This document shows, in pieces, positions 14,918-20,822 of a stretch of 64,000 nt of DNA (the first letter of the stretch is position 1; the number at the start of each line of letters is the position of its first letter). The notes below the pieces were generated by a model. The model saw only the letters and a list, made by a program, of their open reading frames with translations. It was not told where the DNA came from and searched no databases. The stretch comes from Candidatus Poribacteria bacterium (lineage in GTDB: Bacteria; Poribacteria; WGA-4E; PCPOR2b). The stretch covers positions 1,184,001-1,248,000 of the forward strand of contig OZ244587.1 in the NCBI GenBank assembly GCA_965218095.1, given 5' to 3'. The position numbers and the translations under genes are program-made.

Positions 14918-14987
14918 TATCTTCACGCAGGAGATGTAACCAGAGGCAAGGTTGCACATAACCTACAATAGTGAGGTTTGTTGAACC

Positions 14988-15374
14988 ATGCGACAAAAAC
15001 GATATTTTACTGTAGAAGAAGCAAACCGGCTGATTCCCATTTTGGAACAAGAACTCTCAGAATTGAAGGGACTTCGGCAGGAACTCGAAGCACTCGGGGC
15101 GGAATTGACCCCATTCTTTGAAGTCATTCGTCACAACGGTGGGCATCGAAAAACACCGCAGTTTCTCGAATTGACAGGAAAATTCCGGGACGCCATTGAG
15201 GAGATTCAGTCCTATGGGTGCACGATAAAAGATATAAATCCGGGATTAATCGACTTCCCTCACCTTCGGGAGGGTAGGGAGGTTCACCTCTGCTGGAGGG
15301 CTGGGGAAGAAGCGGTCTTGTACTGGCACGAGGTTGATGCCGGATTTGCCGGAAGACAGTTGATTGAAGAGTAA
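14988..15374 (+). CDS. DUF2203-family protein
   Basis: FTVEEANRLIP, IKDINPGLIDFP, LCWRAGE...YWH...GFAGR. Confidence 0.88.
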   Translation: MRQKRYFTVEEANRLIPILEQELSELKGLRQELEALGAELTPFFEVIRHNGGHRKTPQFLELTGKFRDAIEEIQSYGCTIKDINPGLIDFPHLREGREVHLCWRAGEEAVLYWHEVDAGFAGRQLIEE

Positions 15375-15391
15375 AGTTAAGCGCAGCAAAA

Positions 15392-15468
15392 TCTCCCGAT
15401 TCTATCGGGATTCACGGCTCGGTAATGTTCGCTCCGAACAAACCGAGTCGGAACCGATCTATCGGGGC
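15392..15468. repeat. REP-like palindromic element (CCCGAT..ATCGGG hairpins)
   Basis: tcccgattctatcggga and ccgatctatcgg flank a further stem; related motif at 55726-55740. Confidence 0.55.
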
Positions 15469-15482
15469 AGTGTCTACAGGGT

Positions 15483-15655
15483 TTAAGGGATTAAGGCAAC
15501 CCAATCTCGGTCTAATGGCACCCGGTCCACCTGCCAGCCATAGACGTTAATCTCATACACCTGTCGGCCCTCTTCTATACTCTCTTCAAAGATAATACGT
15601 TCCCCATCGGGAAACCACTTCAGAGTTGTAGCAAACTCCACCAGCAAATTAAACC
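15483..15655 (-). pseudogene. C-terminal fragment of a TolB/PD40-like beta-propeller protein
   Basis: LKWFPDGERIIFEE...RQVYEINVYG; no start of its own. Confidence 0.5.
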
Positions 15656-16404
15656 CTAAGAAACAGAACCTGCCTTTTTTAATGCCGCACTTAAAAACTC
15701 CAAGGCTGCCGTGCGGCGTAAGTATGGGTGGGCGAACTGATTCCGATAACCGCGTAGGCAGCCGTAGCAACTTTCGTCACAACCACAACCACCTTCAACC
15801 CGTGTTCTTGCGTTGCGAAGCATTTCCAAAAAAATTTTCTTATTTTCTAAATGTGCCACTAACCCGGCGCCACCCGGAACGTTATCATACAACACAATCG
15901 CCGCATCGTCCGCAGTATCCCCGCCAGTAATGGTGACGTTCAAGTCGGTATCCGGCACATCCAGTGCCTCGACCGCACCCAATAAAACGGCGTATGCGAG
16001 AGAATACGCCTCCCATTGATCGACCAATCTAGGAAATTGCAAACGGACTACATCAGTGATGAATTCATGTCCGAGAGACAGAGGTTCCAGAGGTCTGTTA
16101 CAATCACGACCTTCGGGTGTTTTATGCGAACTATCTGGCTCAGTGTAATGCGCGCCGCAGGAGCGACAAATATAAAACCCATTACCGTTTTTTCCTTCGC
16201 ATAGAACAACTAGGCCTCCTTGCAACGCTTGGGTAATCCTGATACCGAACAAATCCTTTGACGCATTCTCCAGTTGGGTGTCGTCATCAAACCCACGGAA
16301 GAACGGGCGCGTGGTATACAAACGGTGTGACCTCCCATGCGGCTCTTTGGGTTGATCCAGCAGCGAGGTCACGAAACCGAATTCGGGCCACAGGTATTTT
16401 CTTT
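15656..16404 (-). pseudogene. DEAD/DEAH helicase with DUF1998, C-terminal segment
   Basis: LGHEFITDV, LYDNVPGGAG, CGCDESCYGCLRGYRNQFAH (DUF1998 four-Cys motif); continues in frame from 18502-19204. Confidence 0.88.
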
Positions 16405-16462
16405 CGCGCTCATAAGTTTTAGACTTGATTTTTCCTTGAAAATCTGAAAGGAGTTAAGAACG

Positions 16463-16939
16463 ATGAATGTATTTGATGCTGTAGAAAGATTTTCGGATCA
16501 AGAGAGTTGTATTAAACACTTAGAAACCATCCGCTGGGGGGGTAAACCTAAGTGTCCGTATTGCGAAAGTGATCATGTAGCACCGAAACAGGAAGGCGAT
16601 AAAGTTGGACGGTGGAATTGCCATTGTTGCAAGTCGAGTTTCAATGTTTTATCCGGCACCTTGTTTCAAGGTACACAGGTTCCGCTTCAGAAGTGGTTTC
16701 TGGCTATCTTGCTTATGAATAATGCGAAGAAAAGCCTATCCAGTTGTCAACTTGCCCGACATTTAGACTTAACCCAGCCTTCCGCATGGTATATGATGCA
16801 ACGAATACGGTCTGAGATGGGCAGAAAAGGTAAAGTTCCGATGGAATCGGAATCCTCGGAAGCGGGTTCCGCGGGACGCGGAATGCTCGCCTTGCGGCAC
16901 TTGCTGAGAGACATTATCGAGAAACCACTTCAGGGCTAA
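16463..16939 (+). pseudogene. IS1595-family transposase, truncated before the DDE domain
   Basis: IRWGGKPKCPYC, WNCHCCKSSFNVLSGTLF, PLQKWF, LSSCQLARHL, AWYMMQRIR; similarity stops near 16838. Confidence 0.88.
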
Positions 16940-16997
16940 AACCCAATACTTTAGTTTTGGGAGTATGTCAATGAAGTTGACGAAACGTAGCGAGTGG

Positions 16998-17045
16998 TAG
17001 CAGAAGGTGTCCGTTCCGAGACAGGATTGATAGCACCCTCTGCTA
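16998..17045. terminator. Hairpin, possible terminator between the convergent transposase and dockerin genes
   Basis: tagcagaaggtg ... caccctctgcta (11/12 inverted repeat). Confidence 0.45.
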
Positions 17046-17051
17046 TTTTCA

Positions 17052-18473
17052 CTAGTCAAACTGTTTGGCAACAAGCACTAAATCAAAAATGTTTACAATG
17101 CCATCACCGTTGAGATCGGGCTTTGTTTTGCCGAAGTTTTTTGCAACCAATACCAGATCCAAGATATTGATTCTACCATCACCGTTGACATCAGCCGGGT
17201 TAGGGGTTTTGAGGTAGATTTCGCCATCTAAATCGGGAAGGATATGGATCATATCCTTCTTGTTGCTAGACATGGCAATCGTTGGTTGAGGCAATAAAAT
17301 TGCCTGCTCAGTCCTACTCCGGTTGTAGACTGCCCAGCCGTTAGTAAACTCTCGGATATACAAACCCTCGATATCTTGATACCGTTGGGTAATGGGACCG
17401 ATAGGTTGTCCGAGGTCAGCGTCCCAAAAAGGGTGCCAGATGTGTTTCTGGTAACCTTTTTGTCCGTTTTTTGTTCCAATAGTATAGAGCGAATATCCAT
17501 TAGACAGGGTGAGGCTCATTGTTGTGAATAAGCGCATCCACTGTCTATTTCTTGGGCTATCTGGTGGTTCAGCACCGATGCCGAAACCTCTTAAAAGGTT
17601 GATTTTGGGTTCTCGGACGTTTGCTTCATACCAGATAAGATTGTTTTCAATATCAATAATATCCGCGCGTGTGTACCCTTCTTCGCGCGTATTCGGGAAA
17701 GTTTCCATGAAACCGCCATTGATGTAAGGGGCTGAAAGCGGAAGTGGGTTCCGATTGTTATTACATAGAATGAGAAAATCGTCCGGCACAACTGCACGAA
17801 TTTTCTGGAGAATTGAGATGAGTGCCTGTCGTTCCACCTCAAGATCGAGCTGGTATTGCGGCGTTCTTTCATATTCATAATATGGGACCGTAGTCTCATC
17901 ATAAAGCACGACGTAGTTTTCCGCCCATGCGTCGAATACGATGCCGTCATACAAGCCACTTTTTGCGATAGCACCCGCCCGTTGAGCAATAACGTCTTGA
18001 ACTTCTGGCAATCTAAAATCAATTAGATAATCATTACCCCTGCGAACAGGATTTCCGTTGGCGTCTCTTAGCCAACCAAACCAATCTTCGGAATAACGAT
18101 CGGGGGAGGCATAACTTTGTCGAAGATCGAAGAGTAATATCAGATTGGGGTTTATGGAGAGCAGTTCATCCCGTATGGCTATCATTCTTGGTAAATCACC
18201 AATTAATTGATACCCTTCCGGGGTCAGTTGAAGCCCCTTACTCAAGTAATGCCACCAAAGATCATGAGTAGCAATACGTTCATTATAAGGTATCGAATCA
18301 TCCCACCAGTTACCACCACGATTCAAGATTCCATCGTCCCATGGTAGTGCAATAGATGGAAGGCTTCGATTGTCGATTCTGTCTCGAATCGAAGCGGTTT
18401 GAGAAGATTGCTGTGCAAAGGCAGAAGTCACAGCAAAGACGAATAAACAAACAGCAAAAACAAAACGTCTCAT
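17052..18473 (-). CDS. Secreted putative glycoside hydrolase (GHL15-like) with C-terminal dockerin domain
   Basis: Signal peptide MRRFVFAVCLFVFAVTSAFA; YDGIVFD; dockerin repeats DVNGDGRINILDLVLVA and DLNGDGIVNIFDLVLVA; RBS AAGGA. Confidence 0.78.
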   Translation of the reverse strand: MRRFVFAVCLFVFAVTSAFAQQSSQTASIRDRIDNRSLPSIALPWDDGILNRGGNWWDDSIPYNERIATHDLWWHYLSKGLQLTPEGYQLIGDLPRMIAIRDELLSINPNLILLFDLRQSYASPDRYSEDWFGWLRDANGNPVRRGNDYLIDFRLPEVQDVIAQRAGAIAKSGLYDGIVFDAWAENYVVLYDETTVPYYEYERTPQYQLDLEVERQALISILQKIRAVVPDDFLILCNNNRNPLPLSAPYINGGFMETFPNTREEGYTRADIIDIENNLIWYEANVREPKINLLRGFGIGAEPPDSPRNRQWMRLFTTMSLTLSNGYSLYTIGTKNGQKGYQKHIWHPFWDADLGQPIGPITQRYQDIEGLYIREFTNGWAVYNRSRTEQAILLPQPTIAMSSNKKDMIHILPDLDGEIYLKTPNPADVNGDGRINILDLVLVAKNFGKTKPDLNGDGIVNIFDLVLVAKQFD

Positions 18474-18501
18474 TTTAGGGTGTTCCTTTCTTTTGAGAGT
18501 G

Positions 18502-19204
18502 TTTTCTTTTAGAGGGACCGTTGGTTTCGTTCCATTGCTTGAAATTACGTGCATCATCGTAATCATAGCACATCACTCGAAATTCCTTACCGATAATTTT
18601 TTTTACTCCGTGGGAAATCCATTCCCTTTTGTCTGCGACAACCTTACCTCCCGGTGCGTATTCGGCAATGGCCTGCTGCAAATCCCGCTGTAAAGAAACT
18701 TTTGCTGCATCTGCCCTGCTTTTCGGACGAGTGTCTAGTTCCACAACGTCTACTGGAAAACCATATTCAGGAATAATAGCCTTGCGTGATAAGAAGGTCA
18801 GCGTCCTTTCCTCGGCGATGGTTTTCATGCGTCTATCCATTTGATTGACATGCGAGTAATCTCCCTTTTGATAGCATTCTTCTATCATTTCCCGCATCTT
18901 GCGATAGTCATCGCAAATTTCCTGCTCGGCATAGGCGAAACGGCTTTCCGGTCCCGCGATTTCTTCCACCCATTTCCCGTTGTTTAGCCCCGTTTCGACG
19001 TGCATATCCGACGGGACCACGAAGCGCATAGACTTATGTAACTCGTCATTATTCCGGCAAAAATCCTCAAAGTCAGAAACAGCGCGAGGATTATCCCAAT
19101 CGTTGATAAGATCCTGCACATTCTTGAACCGCTCCACGTTATCTCTTTTTTTGAAAAATGCGGACAACGCCACGGCGGTGATATGCCGTAAAATAATTCT
19201 TTTA
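18502..19204 (-). pseudogene. DEAD/DEAH-DUF1998 helicase, middle segment
   Basis: RHITAVALSAFF, LSRKAIIPEYGFPVDVVEL, LQRDLQQAIAEYAPG; the ATPase N-terminus is missing. Confidence 0.85.
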
Positions 19205-19223
19205 CGCAATCAGTAGTTTAGGG

Positions 19224-19252
19224 TTGAATTTCTGTGATAAATCGGGTATAAT
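19224..19252 (+). promoter_or_regulatory. Transposase promoter
   Basis: TTGAAT-N17-TATAAT, followed by AAAGGAG RBS. Confidence 0.6.
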
Positions 19253-19290
19253 AAAGGTGTTCAAACCCGCATTATCAAAGGAGTTCAGCC

Positions 19291-19966
19291 ATGAATTTGT
19301 TTGACACTATGGAACGATTTCCAGACCATAAATCTTGCATAGAATATCTTGAAAATATCCGCTGGGGTGATAATCCATATTGCCCACATTGTGGAAGTGT
19401 AGACGTGTATCAAAAGTTAGATGGCACCCGTGTAGGACGCTGGCATTGTAAGGATTGCCATGCAAGTTTTAATGTCTTAGCCAAGACGTTGTTTCAGGGA
19501 ACTCATGTTCCGCTTCAGAAGTGGTTTCTCGCCATCAGAGTGGTTTCTCGCCATCAGTCTGATGATGAATGCGAAGAAGAGCCTATCCAGTTGTCAGCTT
19601 GCCCGCGATTTGGGAATCAATCAGAAGACCGCATGGTATATGCAAGTCCGTATTCGTGCTGAAATGGCATCGAAGGGGGGCGGTCTCCTGAAAGGCATTG
19701 TTGAAACTGATGAAACCTACGTTGGTGGTAAGCCGAGAAAGGGAAACAAACGTAAGGATGATGAACCGAAGAACCCACGCGGGCGTGGCACGAAGAAAAC
19801 GCCGATCATTGGGGCTGTGGAACGCGGTGGCAAGGTTGTAGCCAAGGACCTGACGGGGAGAGGTGTCCTGAAGTTTATCAGGAATTACGTCAACCCAGAC
19901 GGGGCCGTGCTGATGACTGATGAATATCAAGCGTATAACGCGGTTGATTCTGCGTTCAAGCATGAA
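19291..19966 (+). pseudogene. IS1595-family transposase, frameshifted and C-terminally deleted
   Basis: Zn ribbon CPHC..CKDC, VETDETYVGG, GRGTKK, LMTDEYQAY; a perfect 19-bp tandem duplication at 19520-19557 causes the frameshift. Confidence 0.9.
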
Positions 19967-20535
19967 TTGGTTTCAGTTGCCTTATTACCTGACTCATCTT
20001 CGCCCGGTGCTGCGGAATCTGTCTGGGAGTCAGATTCCGCACCCGTATTCTCCTGACTCTGGGGTTCATCGGAATCTGTGAGGTTTTCTTCTGTTTCTTG
20101 TGTTTCTGGTTGCTCTGCCGATGCTTGGTCATCTGACTTTTCTTCTCCCTGTTCTACGGAATCTGTCCGGGAATCGGACTGGGGCTTGGTTTCGGTTGCC
20201 TTGTTATCTGGCTTGTCTTCGTCCGGTGCTTCGGAATCTGTCTGGGAGTCAGATTCCGCACCCGTATTCTCCTGATCCTGGGATTCATCTGAAGTCGTAG
20301 GATGTTCTTCTACTGTCCCGTTTTCACGCTGATTTGCTGTTTTCTCATCAGCAGCTACTACATCAGGTTTTTCGCTTTCTTGTGAATCTATTTTGGAGAC
20401 TGAATCACGGTTTGTGCTGTTGTTCTTGATCGAAAACCGGTGCCAAATGGCTTTGACTTTGATGAGTATTTTAACAAACTTCTTGAACATTGCCTTATAA
20501 CCTTTTTTGAATGCTTTGATAAGCTCGTTGAACAT
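19927..20535 (-). CDS. Acidic low-complexity protein with a 73-aa repeat, 3'-truncated by fusion to the transposase remnant
   Basis: QENTGAESDSQTDS...NKATET occurs twice; DNA repeat offset 219 bp (19997 and 20216). Confidence 0.55.
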   Translation of the reverse strand: MFNELIKAFKKGYKAMFKKFVKILIKVKAIWHRFSIKNNSTNRDSVSKIDSQESEKPDVVAADEKTANQRENGTVEEHPTTSDESQDQENTGAESDSQTDSEAPDEDKPDNKATETKPQSDSRTDSVEQGEEKSDDQASAEQPETQETEENLTDSDEPQSQENTGAESDSQTDSAAPGEDESGNKATETNSCLNAESTALYA

Positions 20536-20793
20536 TGTCCTGTAACCTTAAATTCCATACATCTGGTAATTGACAATGTTCATGTCGAACGAGTACATCA
20601 GTCACTGCTAATCCAAAATGTTTTGCCGTCAACGGTTCGGGAATATCAAAATCCAAATCTGGACAAAAAATATCCCCCAAGCCATTGATCCATTTACTTC
20701 TTTCGAGTGGTTATAGGATGACTACATCGCCTTCCAATATAGGCTATTTGCTGTGAAGAATACAACAAATTTTCCAATGTAAACAACAAGCCC

Positions 20794-20822
20794 ATCTTAT
20801 CAGTGGTGAGTGCGTTTGTCAA
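20794..20822 (-). promoter_or_regulatory. sigma70-type promoter reading into the mosaic region
   Basis: TTGACA-N17-TAAGAT. Confidence 0.55.

Follow-up and report, generated by a model that had tools for sequence, protein, structure and literature searches.

Poribacteria are uncultured sponge symbionts whose genomes abound in insertion sequences (IS) and in secreted proteins of repeat, dockerin and carbohydrate-active types. Elements of the IS1595 family, which has been little studied, generate target-site duplications of 8 bp (the ISfinder value) and were recognized here by the Pfam domains PF12760 and PF12762 and the NCBIfam model NF033547. An IS1595-family element with passenger genes is termed a "transporter IS" (tIS), reportedly after Siguier, Gagnevin and Chandler (2009), as cited in PMC3129680. 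Parts of PMC3129680 deal with passenger-carrying IS1595 elements and with the trans-activation of transposase-less IS derivatives, and name mobile insertion cassettes (MICs) with IS231-MIC231 as the case, whereas a portion of PMC3316993 covers the mobilization of ISEcp1-type units through surrogate ends.

An insertion was found in a 64,000-nt stretch of a Candidatus Poribacteria genome (the window; positions are counted from its first nucleotide), where 2,097 bp (16405-18501, the insert) lie between the two copies of an 8-bp direct repeat within a helicase gene. The features of the locus are listed below, IS9 and r5095 being resident IS1595 elements of the same genome.

15656..16404, minus strand: helicase C-terminal fragment, DruE-like DEAD/DEAH, with MrfA Zn-binding (former DUF1998) domain; homologue residues about 1171-1420
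16397..16404, no strand: target-site duplication, left copy, TTTTCTTT
16405..16428, plus strand: left inverted repeat (IRL), genuine, of the local IS1595 lineage, by alignment with the left ends of IS9, r5095, r2802 and ISB
16463..16939, plus strand: transposase remnant ORF, 158 aa, with PF12760 only and no DDE domain
16896..16976, plus strand: TnpB-like scrap, akin to the 3' end (right end/guide-RNA scaffold region) of IS605-family TnpB elements
17052..18473, minus strand: passenger gene, intact, 473 aa, with signal-peptide-like N-terminus, GHL15 and type I dockerin
18471..18501, minus strand: passenger leader of the IS lineage, with ATG and ribosome-binding stretch; the outermost 12 nt serve the insert as right end
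18502..18509, no strand: target-site duplication, right copy, TTTTCTTT
18502..19204, minus strand: helicase fragment from the middle of the same gene; homologue residues about 938-1175
19205..19972, plus strand: ISB, a second, different IS1595 remnant with its IRL start at 19205; it truncates the helicase

The direct repeat is limited to these 8 bp, with no extension in either direction, and the target site consists of A/T at seven of eight positions. A related genome (G016, 86-87% nucleotide identity) contains the uninterrupted helicase site without the insert; the distance from GTATTTTC to CATTGCTTG is 43 nt there and has the same length in the window after subtraction of 2,097 + 8 bp. Short-read contigs from runs belonging to two studies span both junctions and show 0 differences (X1, records 2 and 3; X3, records 10 and 11; in addition X5, record 18, and X6, record 31). 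The first-pass annotation had described an IS1595-derived, transposase-defective and passenger-carrying element inserted in a DUF1998 helicase with an 8-bp duplication at 16397-16404 and 18502-18509, and this description is supported. The duplication is present exactly, and the in-frame rejoining proposed for the helicase holds, as removal of the insert and one repeat copy yields an exact match to the homologues and to the G016 empty site. Full-length homologues (1,420-1,421 aa, 84-86% identical) read ...QRKYLWPEFGF..., without extra residues between the positions of PSKRK and YLWP, and the bridging contigs speak against the chimera that the annotation had considered. Contigs of runs X3 and X6 furthermore contain a joint from 16324 to 18530 that skips 2,205 positions and possibly stems from the uninterrupted helicase of a relative; it was not counted as an empty-site allele because its shorter flank amounts to just 27 nt and the joint does not give the intervening bases. 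Other contigs, with 17 differences and continuing past 19198, indicate a relative whose helicase is longer, not an allele of the same strain.

The helicase ORF fragment at 18475-19209 (minus strand) ends in ...NGPSKRK before entering the insert, and translation of the frame starting at 16420 and running downward gives ...RKYLWPEFGFVT.... Residues 940-1174 of the intact homologue P0001 align to the first fragment and residues 1171-1416 to the second, the overlap corresponding to the duplicated codons. The C-terminal fragment carries the Pfam domain MZB (E 5.5e-13) and is 86-89% identical to the homologues P0001-P0011, and P0001 matches PADLOC DruE1 over residues 720-1413 (E 7.4e-153). By these matches the disrupted gene is a predicted helicase of the Druantia DruE type, that is, a putative phage-defence gene that was apparently already decaying. 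The window keeps only its C-terminal third, and a search across the genome for the N-terminal ~937 residues found them absent. The ISB transposase is itself frameshifted by a 19-bp tandem duplication and cut after about residue 226. An Rfam search of 15400-20800 gave no match up to E = 1.

IS9 is a 2,211-bp element with nine copies that are identical save for one position, and it encodes an intact transposase (NF033547, 181.9 bits versus a cut-off of 75). Its target duplications are perfect over 8 bp in 6/9 copies, 9 bp long in 2/9 and imperfect in 1/9, and all targets are A/T-rich (at least 6 of 8 positions, a level reached by 14% of the genome's 8-mers). On its right side IS9 carries an inner relic repeat and a new outer repeat. 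The r5095 element (about 3.27 kb; G000, 5095600-5098866) has its right repeat, and its transposase is related to the remnant in the insert (about 80% at the amino acid level). Both elements hold small membrane/coiled-coil ORFs as passengers.

The left arm of the insert belongs to this lineage. Its IRL sits flush with the target-site duplication and is identical to that of IS9 at 20/24 positions; behind it, ~32 nt of the transposase promoter region are deleted. The transposase remnant shares 85.6% identity with the 293-aa IS9 transposase over residues 1-125 (16463-16837; tblastn), with a blastn identity of 81.7% over 16447-16837, and its tail is unrelated. The zinc-ribbon PF12760 (E 5.4e-8, 33.1 bits versus a cut-off of 25.4) is the sole IS1595 domain of the 158-aa ORF; no match to the ISXO2-like DDE domain PF12762 was found in the remnant, where homology to the IS9 transposase ends at residue 125. 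A metagenome scan with the transposase stump returned 23 loci with at best 66% identity and no progenitor, and seven of these and related loci inspected for arms and passengers yielded nothing usable.

The interior contains two stretches of different origin. The core of the TnpB scrap (35-38 nt) recurs in four related genomes with 88-94% identity; in G007 it follows a TnpB ORF at a distance of 73 nt, and elsewhere in the window's own genome it follows a tnpB fragment at about 140-170 nt. The passenger begins with an N-terminus judged by eye to be signal-peptide-like and matches GHL15 (PF14885; E 4e-14, 53.6 bits versus a cut-off of 27) and the type I dockerin (PF00404; E 5.1e-8, 33.4 bits versus 22.9), and a PDB sequence search gave a match for the dockerin part alone. 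By domain match it is a putative glycoside-hydrolase-like enzyme. The passenger is devoid of the LRR module of its family, and homology to paralogues and relatives starts at residue 27-29; the family members in relatives are LRR-GHL15-dockerin genes with ordinary chromosomal neighbours. Its nearest protein among 5.8 billion, itself excepted, is 69% identical. A metagenome scan with the 473-aa protein produced 19 pattern matches and 0 relatives, and a scan of genome contigs recovered six loci with 49-60% identity, all in Candidatus Poribacteria MAGs and all longer family members. The codons of residues 1-26 show a weak similarity, without significance in either case, to those opening the IS9 passenger (by eye, 15/23 nt) and to those opening a conserved secreted-protein gene at 6255387 of the own genome (14 nt exact; MRRF.F.VC). 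A promoter and terminator scan of 16300-19400 detected 8 promoter-like sites compared with 5.9 ± 2.3 in shuffles, so that no usable promoter call could be made for the passenger, whose expression may depend on outside transcription. A literature search on Poribacteria and dockerin returned nothing relevant.

The right arm is likewise IS-derived. The leader agrees at 26/31 positions with its counterpart on the inner side of the r5095 right inverted repeat, and its first 11 nt are identical to a leader at position 2551473 of the own genome. The 14-mer AGAAAGGAACACCC occurs twice in the 6.35-Mb genome, in the insert and in the r5095 right arm, at both sites just ahead of the start codon (ATG) of an ORF that converges with the transposase. 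IS9 and position 2551473 have the leader block as well, in both cases adjoining the ...GGCTTGTTTTAMCTTT of a right repeat on its inner side, and in r5095 and IS9 a proper right repeat follows 10 nt beyond the leader. In the insert, the true right inverted repeat of ~33 nt is missing, as is the inner GGCTTG box common to all true repeats of the lineage. Its right end agrees with the IRL at 9/12 terminal and 11/24 overall positions; a score of 9/12 is reached by 2.9e-4 of genome positions at fixed position and orientation, or about one site per 3.5 kb per orientation. The corresponding leader 12-mers score, by eye, 8/12 at 2551473, 6/12 in r5095 and 3-5/12 in IS9, and part of the likeness may be inherited and not meaningful, because the leader is a conserved sequence of the lineage. 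A search within the insert for an internal relic right repeat gave at best 14-15 of 24 positions, and none was accepted. Counts of the right-arm motif GGCTTGTTTTAMCTTTC (up to two mismatches) in 40 relatives were near a reversed-pattern control in most genomes, and only one of nine inspected loci (G019) resembles a related right arm. The first-pass annotation had correctly recognized the transposase remnant without DDE domain, the intact 473-aa dockerin gene starting 28 bp from the right end (ATG at 18473) and the 9/12 match of the ends. Its suggestion that degenerate ends mark a distinct subgroup was not upheld, as the left end is a canonical local IS1595 repeat and the right end is a passenger leader with the true repeat missing.

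Compared with the known systems, the insert has the 8-bp duplication of the IS1595 family but a proper terminal repeat only on the left. It shares with tIS the IS1595 zinc-ribbon N-terminus, the left repeat of its lineage, the 8-bp duplication and a convergent passenger behind a leader; a tIS encloses its own functional transposase and the passenger within its repeats, whereas here the transposase is truncated without DDE domain, its promoter is deleted, the right repeat is absent, the passenger region is a chromosomal mosaic and the insert is single-copy. With MICs it has in common the lack of a working transposase, a gene unrelated to transposition and presumable movement by a related transposase in trans. 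However, MICs possess two proper repeats and are usually recurrent, while the insert retains a transposase stump and one proper repeat, and its duplication marks one transposition of the unit. Like ISEcp1-type units, it combines one true end with a weakly similar, putative substitute end, with the duplication around the whole. ISEcp1 belongs to a different family (IS1380), and its unit includes a complete IS with the original right repeat; the insert keeps no such repeat, and its substitute end is located inside the normal right end, not beyond it. The resident elements IS9 and r5095 share the left repeat type, a related transposase and the leader ahead of a convergent ORF, but have right repeats and passengers other than GHL15-dockerin, and the IS9 transposase is intact.

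The insert is probably an IS1595 derivative, non-autonomous and mobilized a single time, which entered the DruE-type helicase as one unit by means of a substitute right end. An IS1595-type transposase would have inserted 16405-18501 in a single step, creating the 8-bp duplication. The resident lineage contributed the left inverted repeat with the first 125 transposase codons and, on the right, the leader and ribosome-binding stretch preceding its convergent passenger ORF. The original IS interior would have been replaced by chromosomal DNA comprising the TnpB-element scrap and a GHL15-dockerin part, the latter taken from an LRR-GHL15-dockerin paralogue and joined in frame behind the signal-peptide-like start. 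Strand transfer may then have used the outer edge of the leader, which by chance resembles the terminal bases of the left repeat, in the manner of surrogate-end use known from ISEcp1. The transposase could have been supplied in trans, for which the nine IS9 copies offer an active relative as candidate, or by the element itself before its decay. Use by an IS1595 transposase of an end without GGCTTG box is putative, and a literature search on IS1595 surrogate ends gave no precedent among the matches listed, the only one naming IS1595 concerning IS91. Several points count against this explanation: neither a second copy nor a donor locus was found, so that a single event is the basis for movement of the whole unit, the GGCTTG box is missing from the substitute end, and the likeness of the leader to the left repeat may partly be inherited.

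Conventional insertion of a complete passenger element with both repeats, followed by exact deletion of the ~33-nt right repeat and truncation of the transposase in place, is unlikely. It would agree with the IS origin of both arms, with the proper right repeats beyond the leaders of r5095 and IS9, and with the other deletions in the region (the 32-nt promoter deletion, the truncated ISB, the lost helicase N-terminus). Such a deletion, however, would have removed the repeat to the base and left the duplication untouched, with no microhomology at the boundaries, and would have stopped by coincidence at a 12-mer resembling the left repeat; the longer variant is also absent from the contigs of four runs, although contigs drop rare variants.

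The first-pass annotation had also seen in the insert a vehicle that spreads secreted dockerin proteins and contributed to their expansion in the lineage. The passenger does occupy the lineage's slot behind a conserved leader, passenger-bearing IS1595 elements are known (PMC3129680), and IS9 and r5095 hold passengers as well. A second copy, however, was detected neither in the own genome nor in 175 further genomes from the phylum (1/176 in total) nor in one metagenome scan, which was also without relatives of the passenger. Each of the 21 other dockerin/GHL15 loci (24 tblastn HSPs) is separated from IS1595 sequence by over 15 kb, the genes of relatives include LRR modules and stand among ordinary neighbours, and the insert itself has no transposase, transposase promoter or right repeat. 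An active or recurrent tIS/MIC subgroup is therefore unsupported and very improbable; the locus represents one insertion of an already known element type, without indication that it spreads the dockerin gene family, and nothing shows that IS1595 elements drove dockerin expansion. Least probable, to the point of being negligible, is a chimera from assembly or amplification, or an insertion made without a transposase and flanked by a fortuitous 8-bp repeat, which has nothing in its favour except the unusual right end and is contradicted by the contigs spanning both junctions, by the genuine IS repeat flush with the duplication, and by a duplication length and A/T-rich target as in the resident IS9.

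The locus is a cleanly resolved case of an IS picking up, reshaping and relocating a secreted-protein gene, which can be traced through a relative's empty site, both junctions and both arms. The conserved passenger leader, the nested right repeats and the possible substitute end provide material for studying end recognition in the IS1595 family. In this one genome, the leader precedes at least three ORFs that differ from each other. It is conceivable, if tentative, that in this poribacterial lineage a leader-equipped passenger slot beside the right repeat exchanges unrelated ORFs and that the transposase tolerates shifted right ends, as the nested repeats of IS9 and the leader end of the insert might suggest. 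If so, the lineage could both build new secreted-protein genes and move them, and the chimeric signal-peptide-GHL15-dockerin gene without LRR module would be one such built gene.

The insert of 2,097 bp (window 16405-18501) is flanked by direct copies of TTTTCTTT, a repeat that cannot be extended to either side, and interrupts a helicase gene on the minus strand.

Features of the interrupted gene and its surroundings (window coordinates; strand; feature; basis)
15656-19204; minus; disrupted DruE-like (Druantia-type) helicase; homologues, intact at ~1,420 aa in relatives (G016 locus L013)
15656-16372; minus; helicase fragment matching the Zn-binding domain; domain match
16397-16404 and 18502-18509;.; target-site duplication TTTTCTTT; direct sequence reading
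19205-19972; +; ISB, a second IS1595 remnant; left repeat from 19205, ~65% nucleotide identity to the resident element IS9
19224-19252;.; promoter-like site of ISB; promoter scan

The upstream helicase fragment (18475-19209) terminates with ...NGPSKRK and then enters the insert, and the downstream frame reads ...RKYLWPEFGFVT... from 16420 downward. A total of 948 related proteins were found at E <= 0.001; the best 12 of these are 77-86% identical, and 10 of the 12 are full length (1,418-1,421 aa). Two homologues, P0001 and P0003, read ...QRKYLWPEFGF... across the insertion site with zero additional residues. Residues 940-1174 of P0001 pair with the first fragment and 1171-1416 with the second, the small overlap representing the duplicated codons. 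The site is empty in the related genome G016, which is 86-87% identical to the window on the nucleotide level over 14974-19198, and in which the spacing from GTATTTTC to CATTGCTTG is 43 nt, equal to that of the window minus 2,097 + 8 bp. Since the homologues and the empty G016 site agree, no repeat statistics are needed to fix the duplication and the boundaries at 16405/18501, and the helicase continuity over the junction proposed in the first-pass annotation is confirmed. Logan contigs from four sequencing runs of two studies were compared with window 15400-20800. The left junction was spanned with 0 differences in runs X1 (record 2), X3 (record 10), and X5 (record 18), and the right junction was spanned in X1 (record 3), X3 (record 11), and X6 (record 31), so that both ends are bridged in runs of two studies. 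One run may represent the genome's own source sample, but the other study is independent of it. For practical purposes these contigs, in which rare variants are invisible, rule out an assembly chimera.

Residues 720-1413 of P0001 match DruE1, a PADLOC model (E 7.4e-153), and the protein contains DEAD, helicase-C, and MrfA Zn-binding (former DUF1998) domains. The surviving part of the gene corresponds to residues ~938-1420 of the homologues and has no stop codons in either fragment. The first ~937 residues (the N-terminal two thirds) are absent anywhere in the 6.35-Mb genome, and the gene is severed at 19204/19205 by the distinct remnant ISB, where synteny with G016 also stops. Based on this loss and the ISB cut, the insertion sits in an already wrecked defence-type gene. 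A small gene at 14988-15374 is the sole gene syntenic with G016 there. A tandem duplication of 19 bp lies in the ISB transposase, which is truncated after ~residue 226. The 3' part of ISB has been replaced by the terminal portion of an acidic repeat ORF of 202 aa (minus strand, 19927-20535), and the final ~15 codons of this ORF are antisense transposase sequence.

According to ISfinder, IS1595 elements generate 8-bp duplications and include subgroups with passengers. Two elements of this family in the same genome served for comparison.

IS1595 elements used for comparison (own genome, G000; coordinates; strand; feature; basis)
3216657-3218867 (locus L019);.; example copy of IS9; genome search
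5095600-5098866 (locus L020);.; r5095, element of ~3.27 kb; left repeat, frameshifted transposase, several ORFs, right repeat

IS9 (2,211 bp) is present in nine copies that vary at one position only, and encodes a transposase of 293 aa passing NCBIfam NF033547 and Pfam PF12760 and PF12762. Its inverted repeats match each other at 18/27 positions, and its target duplications are 8 bp long in six of the nine copies, 9 bp in two, and imperfect in one. All nine targets have at least six A/T among eight bases, compared to 14% of genome 8-mers; the insert's target has 7/8. The convergent 146-aa ORF of IS9 has a hydrophobic N-terminus and coiled-coil character and belongs to no family above cut-off. 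The insert opens with 24 nt that agree with the IS9 left repeat at 20 positions and can also be aligned to the left repeats of four further IS1595 remnants of this genome. Behind this repeat ~32 nt are deleted, taking away the promoter region. The segment 16447-16837 is 81.7% identical to IS9 on the nucleotide level (85.6% at the amino-acid level over transposase residues 1-125), with no homology beyond; the zinc ribbon is the sole Pfam match of this transposase stump.

In a search with the last 122 nt of the insert, the terminal 32 nt matched 5098800-5098831, inside the right arm of r5095. From its tip inward, r5095 shows the repeat (ending ...TAGGCTTG), TTTTAACTTT, and a leader that includes a ribosome-binding stretch and runs up to the start codon (ATG) of a convergent 67-aa ORF. 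Taken in the same direction, the terminal 31 nt of the insert agree with this leader at 26 positions, and the 14-mer AGAAAGGAACACCC occurs at only two genome sites, the insert's right end and the r5095 leader. The leader block also precedes the convergent ORF of IS9; in that element the block follows a relic inner repeat as well as another ~67-90 nt, which carry a promoter-like TTGCAG-17-TATTAT (by eye) and the working outer repeat. It is likewise present in a transposase-less right arm at 2551365-2551500, whose first 11 leader bases are those of the insert. The insert's right end thus is the lineage's passenger leader, and, as judged by these alignments, the GHL15-dockerin gene occupies precisely the passenger-ORF position. 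The IS9 right arm as a whole combines a relic inner with a newer outer repeat, a promoter-like site lying in between. The right repeat of r5095 matches its left one at 16/24 positions, and a target duplication is absent; its ORFs code for a product of 70 aa, one of 293 aa that begins like a signal peptide, and, behind the common leader, a 67-aa membrane protein. The transposase-less right arms at 2551365-2553400 comprise outer repeat, inner relic repeat, and leader, with a second partial copy ~590 bp on, and the neighbouring ORFs are homologues of the r5095 passengers, arranged in inverted order.

The right repeat (~33 nt) is missing from the insert, and the duplication adjoins the leader's first base; no relic repeat was found within the insert (best 14-15 of 24). 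The first-pass annotation had described the ends as unusually degenerate, matching at 9/12 positions. The match of the 12 tip bases to the insert's own left repeat stands, and this score is reached by 2.9e-4 of all positions and orientations in the genome (roughly one site in every 3.5 kb for each orientation). Over 24 nt only 11 bases match and the GGCTTG box is missing; the right end is the passenger leader and not a degenerate repeat.

A staggered duplication of 8 bp that directly borders a genuine IS1595 left repeat, together with the A/T-rich, IS9-like target, indicates that an IS1595-family transposase inserted the segment as a unit, either as the present 2,097 bp or as a longer forerunner shortened internally later. 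With the duplication directly at the leader and no right repeat between them, two courses are conceivable. We prefer that the transposase joined a substitute end, the outer edge of the leader, since the 9/12 tip match would otherwise be a 3-in-10,000 coincidence. The main rival is that a complete element inserted and afterwards lost exactly its 33-nt right repeat; we regard it as unlikely, as the loss would need to spare the duplication, without microhomology. The transposase could have been the element's own, made before it decayed, or that of IS9, acting in trans. The promoter deletion and truncation, in contrast to the stop-free helicase fragments, lead us to lean weakly toward decay before insertion. 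ISEcp1 and others are established cases of surrogate-end mobilisation (PMC3316993), and both trans-activation of transposase-less IS derivatives and passenger-carrying IS1595 elements are standard concepts (PMC3129680). A limited literature search yielded no IS1595 precedent for the use of a surrogate end; one-ended transposition is ascribed to IS91 in a paper that names IS1595.

The passenger gene encodes 473 aa with GHL15 and dockerin domains. At least 2,957 relatives at E <= 1e-20 were found among 8,000 candidates scored (best 69% identical), and most of the 120 relatives listed have 600-750 aa and LRR domains. Four short forms checked among the matches listed (P0153, P0173, P0212, P0216) lack a signal peptide and resemble cut gene calls. 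Four paralogous loci exist in the same genome, all extending upstream into LRR repeats.

LRR-GHL15-dockerin paralogues (own genome; coordinates; strand; basis)
2563865-2566571;.; own-genome homology
2780722-2782274;.; own-genome homology
1683865-1685376;.; own-genome homology
3432635-3434686;.; own-genome homology

Three of the four are broken (two frameshifts, one in-frame stop), leaving 3432635-3434686 and the element's LRR-less gene as the only open copies. One paralogue has an extra C-terminal sorting-type domain. Among four loci listed from related genomes, three are whole genes (676-888 aa) in which LRR repeats and a start resembling a signal peptide lie upstream of GHL15-dockerin, and the fourth is an 855-aa call beginning inside the LRR region. 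Homology to paralogues and relatives begins at residue 27-29, and the 473-aa gene therefore is a derivative that has no LRR part and whose N-terminus differs, the latter judged by eye to be a putative signal peptide; comparisons of codons 1-26 gave no significant likeness. A promoter scan around the gene gave nothing above chance. Since the 28 nt ahead of the gene within the insert are too short for a promoter, and the IS9-type promoter lies in the missing part, expression, if any, would come from outside.

Nothing IS1595-like was found from 16838 to ~18392. This interior contains a short conserved segment.

TnpB-related features (coordinates; strand; feature; basis)
16896-16976 (window); +; TnpB-element 3' scrap; conserved 35-38-nt core
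16896-16976 (window), 3403311 and 5416094 (own genome), L014:2382-2416 (G007);.; 35-38-nt motif CCCAAT.CTTTAG.TTTGGGAGTATGTCAA; sequence recurrence

The core is 88-94% identical in four related genomes and at two further sites in the own genome. It lies 73 nt downstream of a TnpB ORF (PF01385 and PF07282) in the related genome G007, and a variant lies ~140-170 nt downstream of a tnpB fragment in the own genome. We interpret the segment as leftover 3'-end sequence from a TnpB element of the IS605 family, the motif probably marking such ends in this bacterial family. Several solo copies without a tnpB gene also occur, and Rfam yielded no match to the motif.

The first-pass annotation had proposed a vehicle spreading secreted dockerin genes. 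No further copies of the element were found in its own genome, and in a phylum search with one genome per species (176 genomes including the window's own) it occurred in that genome only; the best foreign matches (71-72% identical) were restricted to the GHL15-dockerin part. Scans of metagenome contigs found no relative of the 473-aa protein and matched the transposase stump at <= 66% identity. The search for further cargo-bearing copies in the own genome, the 175 other phylum genomes, and metagenome contigs thus did not bear out the proposed spread. None of 24 other GHL15/dockerin HSPs in the genome was nearer than 15 kb to IS1595 sequence.

In its working the element resembles a mobile insertion cassette, or a surrogate-end transposition unit, whose arms derive from IS1595; without a DDE domain and a right repeat it is not an IS or tIS proper. 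Elements of this kind are already known, and the novelty is modest. New are the occurrence in Poribacteria, with a chimeric GHL15-dockerin gene as passenger, and a leader specific to this lineage that stands before no fewer than three different passenger ORFs, along with signs that right ends shift.
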